From Candidatus Omnitrophota bacterium (GTDB lineage: Bacteria > Omnitrophota > Gorgyraeia > Duberdicusellales > 4484-171), in assembly GCA_021735655.1 (NCBI GenBank), contig JAIPGM010000001.1, positions 1-64,000 on the forward strand: a DNA stretch of 64,000 nt, in the 5' to 3' direction. The notes beneath the pieces were generated by a model. That model was given only the letters and a program-made list of their open reading frames with translations. It made no database searches and had not been told where the DNA came from. The translations under genes and the position numbers were made by a program. Within the stretch, counting starts at the first letter, position 1. Each line of letters starts with the position of its first letter. Shown here in pieces: positions 53,375 through 64,000 of the stretch.

Positions 53375-56300
53375 ATGGATCAAGCCACCAACAATCAGTC
53401 AGGACTATTTACCCAAATCCATAATCCGGCTTTTAAGCCTTGGATGCGTAAGGTAGCCTTTTTGGTTCTTTTTTGTTTTCTTTGGCAGGATATGGCCTCG
53501 GCTTATGGCCCAGATTTAGCTACTTCAATCCACACTACGCTTAGTCCTTATCAAACTCCAATCTATCGGCCCTTAGGCTTAAGTTATTTTATTGCTAGTG
53601 CTCCGGTCTATGCTCAAACGGCCGGTGGTAACTCTACTAGTATTTCTCCTAAACTTTCTGGTGGAACAGCGCCAGTGACTTCTTCGCCGAAAGTAAGTCC
53701 TGTAGCAGCTGGCAGTGGTAGCGGTGGGCAAGGTGGTGGAGCATCGGCTAAACCAAAGCCTCCGAATTCCGATACAGCGAAGCCATCAACACCTCCAAAA
53801 CCATTAAAGCCATCACAGCCAAAACCAGTAGCAGTTAAGCCCGGTAGCACTGATTGGGGTGCTGTTACTAGAGGTGCTACAGATGCTTTTAGAGCCGTAG
53901 CTCCAGTTACTACTACTGCACTTGAAGGTGTTGTAAGAACAACTGGAAGAATAGCACCTACGCTCATTGGTTCAGAGCCAGGCCAGGCTGGTAAGCCGAC
54001 TGGTTTTACAGAACAAGTCAGAAGGATCGGTTCAGACCTTGCGGATTCGATAAGTATTGCTGTTGAGAAAGTAGCTGCTAAACAGACATCAGTCGCTACT
54101 ACTTTTGAATCTGCTTTAGGAGAAAATTGGGCTCAAGCTCGTAGTCAAGGCAAGAGTGGTTTTGAAGCTAACCAGATCGGAGTAGTTAAGGGTATTGAGG
54201 CAGTTAAGCAGATAGAGGGAGCAGTTTGGGGTGGTTTTCTTGAACAGCATGTAACTTCACAAGTTCTTGCTGCACGAGAAGCTTTGCCTATCGCTGACCC
54301 AAAAATACTAGCTCTTATTGAAACAAATACTAACCGTAGGGTAGAGATTGCTGCTTTTGAGCATCTTAATCCAGGGCAAAGGATCCAGGCGGCTAAAATT
54401 GGTGGTCTGGCTGGAGGCGAACTTAAAATAGCCGCTAGTCAGCAGAAATTAGTTCTACCGCAACATTACGCTAATCCCGATAATGTATATAATCAAGTTG
54501 GCCAGCTAGCTGCTAAACTTAACGGTCGAGTTGTCTCAGCTGAAACCATGCATAGTGATATTAAGAGGCTAGCTATGGGCACGGCTCGTCTAGGCACTCA
54601 CGATTTAGCTACAATTTATACTCAAGATGGCATGATCAAGCCAGGAAGGACTGCAGCCGGAAACCCTAATGCTTTTTCAGTTGGCACCGATGGGTTTAAT
54701 CGAGAACGCACTCTTATAACTGGTAATGGTTTGGCTGATGCCACTCAAGCAAATCTTAATCCTTTAAGCGGTCTCGCCGCAGCTGGTTTAGTTCCAGCAA
54801 AGATGGTTAAAGCCGCGGCTCTTCAGAGAACTACGGAGACTTTTACTCGATCAACATCAGCTGTCGGTCAGAAATTTCAATGGCAAGTAAGTGGTTTAGC
54901 GAGTACTAATAAGTTAGCTCAGATCCATACTACTGATTTTAAAGTTGCTAATTTTGGCAGTAATCGTTTGACTAAATCGGTAGCTTTACCGACCCATTTT
55001 GACGGTCAAAAGGGTATATACGTTGGTGGGCACTTTGGTCTTAATCAGAATCAAATAGTTAACTTTCAGGATTTAAAAACTTATAATTTTAATCAAGGTC
55101 ATGGTGGATTTATTTCTCCTGATGGGACTAAGAAGATTACCTTCGACCGTGGTATTGCTGGAGTTGCTGGAAAGTCATCACCGGTAATTTTTAGCCAGGA
55201 ATTTAATAAAATTGGCAATAAGTGGGTAAAATCAACTGCTCATGAAACCACTTTTATGAATCCGTATAAATCCGGGTTTACTAATGATTTCTTTGGCAAA
55301 GGTGCTGAGAAGTTTGCTCCGGCCAGCATTGGAAAGTTTGTTGATTTTGGAAACTGGCAAGGTGTTAATAAAATGGAGAATTCCTTTTTCCACGGAGCCA
55401 CAACTCGTAACTCTGGATTTCAGGAGTTCCATCCCTTAGGTAATACTGGTATTGTTAAGATAGCTGATCCGCTTAAGAAGAATGGTTTACAAACTTTTAG
55501 AGCTGAGTTAGGCATAACTACAAAGCTTGCCCCGGATGGATCAAATTCTCCTTGGGCCACTAATGAGATTTTAAGGGTTGCTCGAATTACCCAGGCTGGA
55601 GAAAAGTTTACTTACCTTTGGCAAAAAGCTGGAGGCGACGACGGTTCTTCTACAATGCTTTTGGCTCGTCCCGGTAAAAGCTTAGGCAATTTAGCTGATA
55701 GCTCAATGATTAGCGGTAAGTTTTCAAAGGGCGAGTGGGAGTCACAGACCTTTTCTTTAAATCCAAGCCTTAATGGTCAGCTTGTTTTTGCTGGCAACAT
55801 GAAGGCTAAGCAATTGCAGGATGGAACCTTTAGCTGGACTGAGACTGCCCTTCCATGTTCTGGCGATAGTTGTGCTGCAAACAGCGGAGCAGCTAAACCA
55901 CAGTGGCAGTTTAATCCTACCGGTCAATTTAACGTTTACAATAACATAACTAACCCAGCTACCTTTCAAAAAATTATAAATAGCAATCAGGGTTTAGGCC
56001 AGCATTTGGCAGGTGTTAAAAATATCCAAAATAGCACTCTTCCGATAAATAATTTTTCGCCAACACCATTCTCGCCCGATTTTCTTGTACCGACAGGGGT
56101 CAAGCTAGGGCATCTTCCTTTTCAGTCTTCGGCATTTGAAAACGGAACTTTAAATACAGCTAAACAGGCCAATAGTGGTTTATTTATGCAATTGCCGAAG
56201 GGCTTTGAGAAAGTTCAGTGGATTGATATGAAGAGTAATAGTTTTGAGAGTTGGAGCACTACCTCTGTTCTTAAGCAGGCCAATGCTGATGTAAGAGGCG

Positions 56301-64000: not shown

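Follow-up and report, generated by a model that had tools for sequence, protein, structure and literature searches.

A putative class I c-di-GMP riboswitch ahead of an Omnitrophota giant gene

When is a giant bacterial gene turned on, and by what? The giant genes of Omnitrophota reach 85,000-147,000 codons and are among the longest known (West-Roberts et al. 2023, bioRxiv 10.1101/2023.11.21.568195; Nielsen & Lui 2026, bioRxiv 10.64898/2026.06.07.730766). The window studied here, i.e., the whole 64,000-nucleotide stretch of DNA that was analysed, contains the 5' end of such a gene, and our reading of its sequence is that this 5' end is likely gated by a class I c-di-GMP riboswitch acting as a transcriptional ON switch.

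The giant reading frame lies on the + strand and contains 3,542 codons without a stop between the ATG at 53375 and base 64000 in the ORF analysis of the window. The nearest in-frame stop upstream is the TAA at 53360-53362, so 53375 is the earliest possible start, and a Shine-Dalgarno-like AAGGG is found ahead of this ATG at 53365-69 (+ strand). The probability of a stop-free run of 3,542 codons is about 1e-112 at the base composition of the window, and the codon usage of this frame correlates with that of the housekeeping genes of the window at 0.85, as against 0.26 and 0.02 for the other two frames. The single unbroken frame described in the first-pass annotation is therefore upheld, being stop-free and native in codon usage. 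That annotation also gave a length of at least 3,500 aa, which was right as to giant size but understated the extent, because extension of the contig gives at least 8,612 aa. On the Logan contig SRR12088349_1123, which agrees with the window in every base over 21.8 kb, the giant ORF runs for 8,612 codons and is still open at the contig end. The gene size is thus a lower bound of at least 8,612 codons, or at least 25.8 kb, since both assemblies end inside the gene. The Logan contig probably comes from the same data set as the window and hence is no independent assembly, so the contig extension proposed as a check kept the frame open to 8,612 codons but stopped short of the 3' end.

The relatives of the giant protein are very few and point to Omnitrophota. 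An exhaustive HMMER search among 1.84 billion representative proteins returned five of them, and the giant was collinear with Omnitrophota giant-protein fragments at 25-29 % identity (P0001, E 6e-79; P0003, E 9.5e-48), the match to P0001 being collinear over 1,200 residues. P0001 carries an N-terminal C39 peptidase domain, and the two relatives whose taxon labels can be read, P0003 and P0006, are Omnitrophica/Omnitrophota. Word-indexed searches with aa 1-1200, aa 1780-3020 and a four-sequence profile returned no relatives; because the exhaustive search found five, the word index evidently misses long divergent proteins. The last 500 aa of the giant segment gave no match in GTDB genomes and JGI metagenomes. 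The TadA fusion protein of the same window is 76 % and 71 % identical to those of two Omnitrophota MAGs, which share the gene order, and at most 57 % identical to proteins elsewhere. By these similarities we place the organism in the phylum Omnitrophota.

A c-di-GMP class I (GEMM-I) aptamer, here called riboswitch D, was found upstream of the giant gene at 53060..53253 (+ strand), matching RF01051 with 50.5 bits (E 6.7e-07; gathering score 35 bits) over model positions 1-87 of 87. It is unusual in that its second hairpin has a loop enlarged by an insertion of about 118 nt. The first hairpin carries a GAGA tetraloop (CCUCGA-GAGA-UCGAGG), and no tetraloop receptor was identified within the long insertion of the second hairpin in the RF01051 alignment. 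The contact bases, with Vc2 numbering mapped by reading the RF01051 alignment, are AAAG-GC (G20), GCGC-A-AAGCC (A47) and CU-AC-CG (C92), and the ligand-contact roles of G20 and C92 have been described (PMC6140456). The whole leader is more stable on folding than shuffled sequences (z = -3.8). The only promoter-like site on the + strand between 52700 and 53500 is a sigma-70-type site at 52990..53019, TTGACT-18 nt-(TG)TATATT, with 10/12 matches and a TG before the -10, and comparable sites lie ahead of riboswitches A and B described below. With the RF01051 match of 50.5 bits and this promoter-like site, both elements that had been placed before the giant ORF were recovered.

The aptamer runs directly into an intrinsic terminator, CCGGGCUACCG / CGGUAACCCGG, then UUUUUUAUUUU, located at 53241..53281 (+ strand) with one C.A mismatch in the stem. 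The 5' arm of the terminator (53241-53251, 11 nt) is the 3' strand of the aptamer, and since the one strand serves in both structures, riboswitch D is predicted to be an ON switch. The terminator hairpin is present in the minimum-free-energy fold of the leader; owing to the C.A mismatch, the terminator scan lists it for the - strand alone. The same overlap of aptamer and terminator was observed in 9 of the 11 aptamers of this clade (D and 8 of the 10 others), in which the 3' arm of the terminator covaries with the aptamer (CUA/UAG, UUA/UAA, UUG/CAA). Class I aptamers were also found upstream of the giant gene in both of the distant relatives with a retrievable gene start, at the loci L082 and L083, so that the comparison of giant-gene riboswitches covers three loci. 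L082 has tandem aptamer-terminator units at 9288-9419 and 9726-9845, followed by a start at 10001, and in L083 a single aptamer (6355-6459) precedes a 1,160-aa gene, which in turn reaches over the start of the giant gene; all of these aptamers score above the gathering thresholds and have the same terminator design. The folded terminator segment of D reaches about -23 kcal/mol, as against -36 to -39 kcal/mol for L082 and L083, and being mismatched and weaker than these the D terminator may leak. An exact-pattern scan of JGI metagenomes for this riboswitch-terminator subtype gave two loci, one upstream of an Flp pilin and the other upstream of a 1,064-aa ORF.

Between the terminator and the giant ATG is an upstream ORF of 24 codons and a stop, MHNKSIVLVMGERGNFFVSYFIYK, at 53293..53367 (+ strand), with 7 nt between its end and the giant ATG. 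Within it is a G-rich motif, GGGGGAAAGGGGGAA, at 53321-53335 (+ strand), of which the window, L082 and L083 have one copy each, in all three cases in the first ORF after the terminator, and the rest of the 84 loci none. In the alignment of the leader peptides, M1, K4 and two glycines are invariant, and the window has this conserved leader, MxxK..MGxxG, only as the separate 24-codon upstream ORF. That this ORF is the true N-terminus of the giant, cut off by a sequencing indel, was judged unlikely; stops occur in all three frames within 53360-53373, so hardly any single indel could join the two.

The giant protein itself begins with an N-terminal extension and a signal-peptide-like segment (aa 1-45; 53375..53509, + strand) with the n-region KPWMRK, the h-region VAFLVLFCFLW and an ASA before Y44. 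The 23-aa extension ahead of a signal-like hydrophobic segment, noted in the earlier reading, is indeed present in the translation as 23 residues before M24-R-K-VAFLVLFCFLW-QDMASA. Its supposed likeness to the extended signal peptides of large adhesins did not hold, as ESPR (PF13018) gave no Pfam match at E <=1. VAF.V...F is invariant in the N-terminal alignment of three giants, and the extension has PAFK..W.R.VAF in common with the Omnitrophota relatives, and we regard the extension, on this alignment, as a feature of the giant family. The VAFLVLFCFLW stretch is the only hydrophobic segment in the 3,542 aa; with a Sec-type signal and no further membrane segment, export is the most likely fate of the protein.

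The body of the giant offers few hints of what the protein does. Its Gly/Asn/Thr/Ser enrichment is real but merely mild (G 9.3, S 7.8, T 6.9, N 6.6 % over 3,542 aa), and the statement that it has no enzymatic motif agrees with our finding of none in the first 3,542 aa. Searches of the giant against Pfam, NCBIfam and PDB sequences, with the single sequence and with a profile, gave no credible match, and below-threshold matches to Fer2_4, CEP104_N and EscR were dropped. No Archaeovorin- or Dockerin-type sets and no SecA_DEAD were found with Pfam in the first 3,542 aa, and no similarity was detected to the neighbouring orphan proteins or to the 1,160-aa and 2,102-aa proteins upstream in the relatives. 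AlphaFold2 models of aa 2691-3330 (five-sequence alignment) and of aa 165-760 (single sequence) had a mean pLDDT of 35.3 and a pLDDT of 35.5, respectively, values at which fold matches would carry no meaning. Whatever function we infer for the giant protein thus comes without backing from a domain or a fold.

Riboswitch D is one of four class I switches within 17 kb of the window. Riboswitch A with its overlapping terminator (36517..36628; c-di-GMP-I, 38.7 bits vs 35) precedes the Flp-type pilin array, and among the Omnitrophota relatives L036 has a riboswitch at the same position (35.5 bits) and L002 a weak match there (26 bits). Riboswitch B with a terminator (45196..45283; 58 bits) precedes a secreted repeat protein at 45324-46652; B and D do not differ in the first hairpin, and B has an A at Vc2 position 20. 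Riboswitch C with a terminator (46782..46870; 38.2 bits) precedes orphan secreted proteins at 46959-48458 and 48473-50569, and possibly also 50974-52800; the proteins behind C have signal-like N-termini. All three are on the + strand. As one of four and conserved in relatives, riboswitch D is more notable than a lone case would be. The Tad pilus said to stand beside the giant gene was confirmed as a Tad/T2SS-like secretion-pilus locus at 25857..44895 (+ strand). It comprises, on the + strand throughout, a Rotamase_2 isomerase (25857-26756), RcpC (26764-27576), a secretin (27639-29279), a MinD-like+TadA fusion (29422-31590), a second ATPase of T2SSE type (31594-32661), about 13 Flp-type pilins (36683 to about 42514) and two T2SSF proteins of the GspF/TadBC type (43165-44895), and TadE/TadG-like proteins are also encoded in it.

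We propose the following course of events. Transcription would start at the sigma-70-like promoter at 52990-53019, and the leader RNA would include the aptamer at 53060-53253, whose final 11 nt are the 5' arm of the terminator at 53241-53281. At low c-di-GMP the terminator would fold and the transcript would stop at about 250 nt, and with c-di-GMP bound the aptamer would keep the shared strand and the polymerase would read through. The read-through transcript would carry the 24-codon leader ORF first and then the gene of at least 25.8 kb, and the product, with its N-terminal Sec-type signal, would reach the envelope or the cell surface. Through the sister switches A-C, of the same design, a rise in c-di-GMP would also turn on the Flp pilins together with three to four orphan secreted proteins, and the whole apparatus would thus be induced jointly; most plausibly, the cell would use it to attach to a host or prey cell or to attack one.

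We consider it improbable that the giant is not gated by riboswitch D but transcribed independently of it, with D acting on the leader ORF only, yielding a small RNA, or serving as an OFF switch or a translational one. A gap of 94 nt and the 24-codon ORF do separate the U-tract from the ATG, the D terminator is imperfect, and in L082 the unit at 9288-9450 is followed by a second promoter-like stretch, so that leaders of this kind can be modular. On the other hand, the promoter scan found no + strand promoter-like site between the D terminator and the giant ATG, the 11 nt common to aptamer and terminator are a classical ON design, and the same layout stands right upstream of the homologous giant genes or operons of L082 and L083. 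The ligand could be another cyclic dinucleotide (3',3'-cGAMP) or some novel compound, as for some GEMM-I variants, and we hold this to be very unlikely. E-value mode does favour RF03167 (c-di-GMP-I-GGC), with a lower E-value for these aptamers, two relatives pass its cutoff (L083 with 65 bits and L082a with 59.8 bits), and the adjoining riboswitch B has A20, a cGAMP or bispecific signature (PMC6140456). But riboswitch D scores only 50.1 bits against the RF03167 cutoff of 59 while passing that of RF01051, and it falls outside RF03167 in having A, not G, after ACGC; G20 is present in D and in the three aptamers upstream of related giants, and all four combine C92 with A after ACGC, where the RF03167 consensus is G, i.e., the canonical c-di-GMP set, L083 and L082a included. 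The window also encodes a GGDEF diguanylate cyclase (9535..10686, - strand; Pfam GGDEF 151 bits), a possible source of the c-di-GMP.

The product, too, could be read otherwise. A long ORF does not necessarily mean one functional protein; it could also stem from a chimeric assembly, be a pseudogene in decay or encode a polyprotein cut into many pieces, none of which we expect. The conserved leader split off as a separate upstream ORF hints at decay of the 5' end, the second assembly is single and probably non-independent, and cleavage by C39 or S8 domains has been raised as a possibility (West-Roberts 2023). A length of 25.8 kb free of stops cannot be put down to decay or chance, and native codon usage over the full length and the collinear similarity to P0001 across 1,200 residues also count against these readings, while post-translational cleavage would leave the regulatory conclusion unchanged. 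The first-pass annotation had seen instead a giant adhesin comparable to LapA. The very large size, the signal-like N-terminus, the link to c-di-GMP and the adjoining pilus locus would suit a giant repetitive adhesin of the classical kind, LapA-type or other (T1SS/RTX, BIg/cadherin), under c-di-GMP control, which we nevertheless rate as highly improbable. Neither self-BLAST nor Tandem Repeats Finder found internal repeats in the 3,542 aa, and Pfam at E <=1 found no Ig, cadherin, BIg, RTX or ESPR domain there, so the adhesin reading gained nothing from the domain scan. The relatives are only Omnitrophota giant-protein fragments, one of them with a C39 peptidase domain. LapA of Pseudomonas is an RTX protein with repeats that leaves the cell through a T1SS, and in the Lap system c-di-GMP acts after translation through proteolytic release (LapD/LapG), not through a riboswitch. 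No LapD/LapG-like match was found among the window ORFs scanned, and with neither these nor RTX/BIg repeats in the 3,542 aa the LapA analogy finds no support in the sequence, although a C-terminal T1SS signal might yet lie beyond the part covered; what is alike is the logic only, in which high c-di-GMP favours a very large surface protein.

The proper frame of reference, judged by neighbourhood and relatives, is the giant genes of Omnitrophota, not LapA. In that phylum, the neighbourhood of giant genes has been described as a secretion system of >10 genes, with gspD, gspE, gspF, rcpC, a Rotamase_2 isomerase and small class III signal-peptide genes (West-Roberts 2023), and the region upstream of our giant matches it component by component. 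The published giants likewise have a signal peptide followed by a long domain-free N-terminal region, and the N-terminal C39 peptidase of one of their architecture groups is present in the relative P0001. They differ in that the published work centres on giants of more than 90 kb, or over 30,000 aa (West-Roberts 2023), with the threshold for 'long proteins' set at 10,000 aa in Nielsen & Lui 2026, whereas for the gene of the window the documented length is 8,612 codons at the least, short of the 30,000-aa class. In addition, the Archaeovorin or Dockerin-type domains of that class are not visible in the available part, and sequence relatives are extremely few. The tie of giant loci to c-di-GMP in West-Roberts 2023 consists only of downstream pilZ genes and GGDEF domains; riboswitches are mentioned neither there nor in Nielsen & Lui 2026, and no riboswitch link to Omnitrophota giant genes was found in the literature searched.

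Among characterized riboswitches, Bc2 of Bacillus thuringiensis provides an experimental precedent. This class I switch has a terminator next to the ORF, turns ON by anti-termination and controls cap, which encodes a collagen adhesion protein and is strongly repressed at low c-di-GMP (PMC4933901). The aptamer-terminator design of D is the same, and the target is also a surface protein, as is predicted for the giant. Bc2 has been tested experimentally and belongs to a Firmicute with an adhesin of ordinary size as target, whereas D is a predicted switch and precedes at least 8,612 codons, and the 118-nt insertion, the conserved leader ORF after the terminator and the three sister switches are features of D. 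Cyclic-dinucleotide control of pili and adhesins is also exerted by class II switches of Clostridioides difficile (pilA1, CD2831), by Vc1-gbpA of Vibrio cholerae and by GEMM-Ib (cGAMP) of Geobacter, to which riboswitch A ahead of the Flp pilins is the counterpart in the window. The riboswitch class (for C. difficile), the phyla and the pilus type (type IVa as against Tad/Flp) are not those of the window. The G20A signature of GEMM-Ib is common to riboswitch B (PMC6140456).

More speculatively, the class I switches of Omnitrophota might form a locus-wide regulon, a master switch for the Tad-like pilus, the accessory secreted proteins and the giant, as the attachment or attack apparatus of ultra-small host-dependent bacteria, and the leader MxxK..(M/C)GxxG..F, which the G-rich motif encodes in the ORF that comes first behind every giant-type riboswitch, might be a new giant-specific regulatory leader peptide or export signal; we put this forward only tentatively.

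To our knowledge, almost no Omnitrophota with giant genes can be grown, and the pairing of an aptamer with a giant gene is the first testable clue to when these genes turn on. A riboswitch is a self-contained regulator, so synthetic DNA and an in vitro assay are enough to test the clue, with no need of a culture. Where metagenomes are fragmented, class I aptamers could also serve to find where such loci begin. The arrangement would be an economical checkpoint, in which the first 250 nt decide on commitment to a transcript of at least 26 kb. A leader that does respond to c-di-GMP would mean that one second messenger turns on the Flp pilins, the secreted proteins and the giant gene at the same time, which would make the giant protein part of a surface-attachment programme.

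The riboswitch upstream of the giant gene (riboswitch D, 53060-53253, + strand) is an ordinary member of the class I c-di-GMP aptamers save for a long insertion. It scored 50.5 bits against Rfam RF01051 (gathering score 35), and the full model was matched, the second-hairpin loop carrying an insertion of about 118 nt. The first hairpin is capped by a GAGA tetraloop, and the bases aligned with Vc2 positions 20, 47 and 92 are G, A and C; G20 and C92 of the class I aptamer read the two guanines of c-di-GMP (PMC6140456). In E-value mode the variant model RF03167 gave a slightly better E-value than RF01051. 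The variant identity was rejected because riboswitch D reached only 50.1 bits on this model, under its cutoff of 59, and because an A, not a G, follows ACGC in all aptamers discussed, where the RF03167 consensus differs; the aptamers were thus taken as canonical class I. The promoter-like site TTGACT-18-(TG)TATATT (52990-53019, + strand), found by sequence match, is the sole one on that strand within 52700-53500; the first-pass annotation had likewise placed a promoter and a riboswitch before the giant gene. Insertions of 40-118 nt in the second-hairpin loop recur in this Omnitrophota clade (window 53122-53232; 15097-15259 in L002, the locus of a relative; 9288-9419 in L082, the locus of the related protein P0003), and the fold of the riboswitch D insertion is an extended imperfect hairpin.

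Directly 3' of the aptamer lies a terminator (53241-53281, CCGGGCUACCG-8 nt-CGGUAACCCGG-UUUUUUAUUUU), whose 5' arm coincides with the final 11 nt of the aptamer (the second hairpin and the closing helix each contribute their 3' strand) and whose hairpin is present in the unconstrained minimum-free-energy fold. Since aptamer and terminator are mutually exclusive, ligand binding should prevent termination, and riboswitch D should act as an ON switch. The overlap design was found in all four window aptamers and in 9 of the 11 aptamers collected from this clade, and the 3' arm of the terminator co-varies with the aptamer (CUA/UAG in L083, the locus of the related protein P0001; UUA/UAA in L082; UUG/CAA in riboswitches B and C and in L002). 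For the Bc2 riboswitch of Bacillus thuringiensis, which lies 5' of the surface-protein gene cap, experiments have validated the same design (PMC4933901); for riboswitch D it is read from the sequence. A single C.A mismatch interrupts the terminator of riboswitch D. This terminator is weaker than its counterparts in the relatives, so it may be leaky.

The association between riboswitch and giant gene is not confined to one gene. In the comparative set of three loci (window, L082 and L083), class I aptamers lie upstream in both relatives with a retrievable gene start, all above the gathering thresholds, and the association is common to three giants of 25-30 % mutual identity. L082 (GCA_024231025.1) carries two complete promoter-aptamer-terminator units in tandem (9288-9419 and 9726-9845) before the giant start at 10001, and a third class I aptamer (2730-2811, 57.7 bits) precedes a 2,102-aa gene upstream of the giant. 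In L083 the aptamer (6355-6459) precedes a 1,160-aa gene, which at its end overlaps the start of the giant gene. The tandem units of L082 (9288-9875) are about 440 nt apart, with nearly identical aptamer 3' ends and terminators and with promoter-like sites. The 2730-2811 aptamer has no obvious terminator; among the variant models it matches c-di-GMP-I-UAU best, at 62.2 bits against a cutoff of 65.9 that it does not reach, and it may carry a U at the position equivalent to C92.

Within the window, riboswitch A (36517) precedes the Flp-pilin array, riboswitch B (45196-45283) a secreted repeat protein and riboswitch C (46782) two to three orphan secreted proteins, all with the overlap design of riboswitch D. 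The position of riboswitch A is kept in L036, the locus of another relative (35.5 bits); in L002 the match there is weak (26 bits). The four aptamers are confined to 36.5-53.3 kb, and none was found in the 36 kb of housekeeping genes, among which lies a GGDEF diguanylate cyclase gene (9535-10686, - strand, 151 bits), 43 kb upstream of the giant gene. At Vc2 position 20, riboswitch B carries A in place of G (AAAAGCAAACC), a substitution that turns GEMM-I aptamers into receptors for 3',3'-cGAMP or for both ligands (PMC6140456). Riboswitches B and D have the same first hairpin, CCUCGAGAGAUCGAGG, which points to a duplication with a subsequent change of specificity.

Between the terminator of riboswitch D and the giant ATG lies a 24-codon ORF (53293-53367, MHNKSIVLVMGERGNFFVSYFIYK), which ends 7 nt short of the ATG. 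The motif GGGGGAAAGGGGGAA (53321-53335) lies within it and has a single occurrence in each of the three loci (window, L082 and L083), always in the first ORF after a riboswitch, and nowhere else among 84 loci. The motif lies within the giant N-terminus in L082 (10002-10060, MREKLNNRANCGGKGEV...) and within the N-terminus of the 1,160-aa protein in L083 (6538-6600, MAEKNLKLKTTKMGGKGGGF...); the 2,102-aa protein of L082 begins with MKQKSNKMGSGDRGRF (2851-2910). M1, K4 and two glycines are invariant in the peptide alignment. The first ORF behind every giant-type riboswitch carries a conserved leader, MxxK..(M/C)GxxG..F, encoded by the G-rich motif GGGGRWAAGGGGGRR. The window leader stands apart from the giant ORF, with stops in all three frames within 53360-53373, so it is either a coupled leader ORF or a decayed N-terminus; its role may lie at the peptide level or at the RNA level.

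The giant frame runs from ATG 53375 to base 64000 as 3,542 codons with zero stops, for which the probability is about 1e-112 at the base composition of the window, and its codon usage correlates at 0.85 with that of the housekeeping genes (the two alternative frames reach 0.26 and 0.02), in agreement with the unbroken frame first reported. The nearest upstream in-frame stop is TAA 53360-62, therefore 53375 is the first available start; AAGGG precedes it with a spacer of 5 nt. The annotated size of at least 3,500 aa holds as a bound and is a large underestimate: on the public Logan contig SRR12088349_1123 (79,101 bp), which provides the proposed contig extension, the gene reaches 8,612 codons and is still open at the contig end, with no 3' end reached. 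This contig is identical to the window, base for base, across the compared 21.8 kb, which suggests that both come from the same data set, so it is not independent confirmation of the window assembly. GC skew is positive in all 2-kb bins of 1-64000 and the + strand carries nearly all genes; the window in its entirety, giant gene included, appears to belong to the leading strand of a single replichore.

The giant N-terminus consists of the 23-residue extension already noted, followed by M-R-K, the 11-residue core VAFLVLFCFLW and QDMASA before Y44, and resembles a Sec signal peptide that ends in an AxA site; the core is the sole hydrophobic segment among 3,542 residues. The first-pass annotation had compared the protein with LapA-type adhesins. 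The body has only three cysteines, and its described Gly/Asn/Thr/Ser richness stands as no more than mild. No internal repeats were found by self-BLAST or Tandem Repeats Finder, and searches with single sequences and profiles gave no match in NCBIfam or PDB sequences and none in Pfam even at E <=1, the domain scan that had been suggested. The visible part does not look like a classical repetitive adhesin, and the likeness to LapA is one of logic only. Two AlphaFold2 runs were uninformative (pLDDT ~35); for the visible part, with the 3' end missing, no fold or domain supports a biochemical function.

Exhaustive HMMER searches of giant residues 2001-3200 against 1.84 billion representative proteins returned five relatives only, all partial; one label is truncated to 'Candidatus', and the two fully readable ones are Candidatus Omnitrophica/Omnitrophota. 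P0001 (3,211 aa), which carries a C39 peptidase domain close to the N-terminus, is collinear over residues 1748-2936 with giant residues 1786-3015 (25.6 % identity, E 6e-79), and P0003 (4,668 aa) aligns over residues 1965-2484 with giant residues 2691-3323 (E 9.5e-48); P0006 has 2,410 aa. The three giant N-termini share an invariant VAF.V...F core preceded by a PAFK..W.R motif. The window is chromosomal and carries PEP carboxykinase, SMC, an EF-G paralogue, PurH, FolC and MnmE. The organism is a member of Omnitrophota: the MinD-like/TadA fusion ATPase (29422-31590) is 76 % and 71 % identical to those of two Candidatus Omnitrophota MAGs (others <=57 %), which keep the gene order downstream of TadA, a 480-aa protein and then the Flp-pilin array.

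The Tad pilus reported near the giant gene was recovered upstream of it, with the gene order Rotamase_2 (25857-26756), RcpC (26764-27576), secretin (27639-29279), TadA fused to an N-terminal MinD/ParA-like domain (29422-31590, residues 4-250), a second T2SSE ATPase (31594-32661), about 13 Flp-type pilin-like genes with the motif AQSxxEY (36683-42514), TadE/TadG-like proteins and two T2SSF genes (43165-44895). West-Roberts et al. described Omnitrophota giant genes that follow a secretion system of >10 genes, including gspD, gspE, gspF, rcpC, a Rotamase_2 isomerase and many small class III signal-peptide genes, with N-terminal regions lacking identifiable domains save C39 near signal peptides (bioRxiv 10.1101/2023.11.21.568195). 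Nielsen and Lui reported signal peptides or membrane helices in 94 % of long Omnitrophota proteins, with the C39 group as one of the two largest architecture clusters (bioRxiv 10.64898/2026.06.07.730766). The window shares Rotamase_2, RcpC, secretin, T2SSE/TadA, T2SSF and small Flp-type genes with that locus, and the giant shares the domain-free N-terminal region, with C39 near the N-terminus of its relative P0001; because of this match the gene is provisionally filed in the Omnitrophota giant-gene class, on its locus and the visible 5' part.

The MinD/ParA-TadA fusion is arranged as if TadZ and TadA made one protein; it is widespread, with full-length matches in Acidobacteriota, Chloroflexota and Rhodobacterales, and its match spans 3.2 kb in both Omnitrophota relatives, implying an insertion. 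The Flp-type array is unusually large, and several members have long acidic or Ser/Thr-rich tails, e.g. 36683-37303 (206 aa). In 3/3 Omnitrophota loci (window 34981-36420, L002 13500-14945, L036 18985-20427) the conserved ~480-aa protein is the immediate upstream neighbour of riboswitch A and the pilin genes; its sole match is weak, between its N-terminus and the helix-turn-helix of IS481 transposase (E 0.026), and it may be a regulator. A family of secreted orphans with degenerate ~14-aa repeats (L-K-P-S-F-x-K/R-L...) is encoded at 33889-34902, 45324-46652 and 50974-52800, with nothing found in Pfam or NCBIfam; identity between ORFs 33889 and 45324 is 35 % (E 6e-47), and the repeats recur in 50974.

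Control of pili and adhesins by c-di-GMP riboswitches is well known, as in the class II switches of C. difficile and Vc1-gbpA. Such control of a surface protein gene is also known for Bc2-cap (PMC4933901), and the Omnitrophota giant genes with their secretion-pilus neighbourhood have been published, where c-di-GMP is tied to giant loci solely via downstream pilZ genes and GGDEF domains (bioRxiv 10.1101/2023.11.21.568195). The word "riboswitch" has no occurrence in either giant-gene paper, and the literature searched on Omnitrophota or Omnitrophica with riboswitch or c-di-GMP contained unrelated work only. The riboswitch class and the gene class are each already known; what is new is their association, a useful regulatory link. 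In the model we propose, in which all regulatory conclusions derive from sequence analysis, c-di-GMP binding would lock the aptamer of riboswitch D and let the polymerase read through, and the giant product would be exported by Sec. Rising c-di-GMP would induce the giant protein along with the pilus and the secreted proteins, and this joint induction may serve attachment to, or attack on, a host cell, a role proposed for the giant-gene class in published work. A premature-termination checkpoint would make sense here, as it could spare the cell the commitment to a transcript of at least 26 kb.
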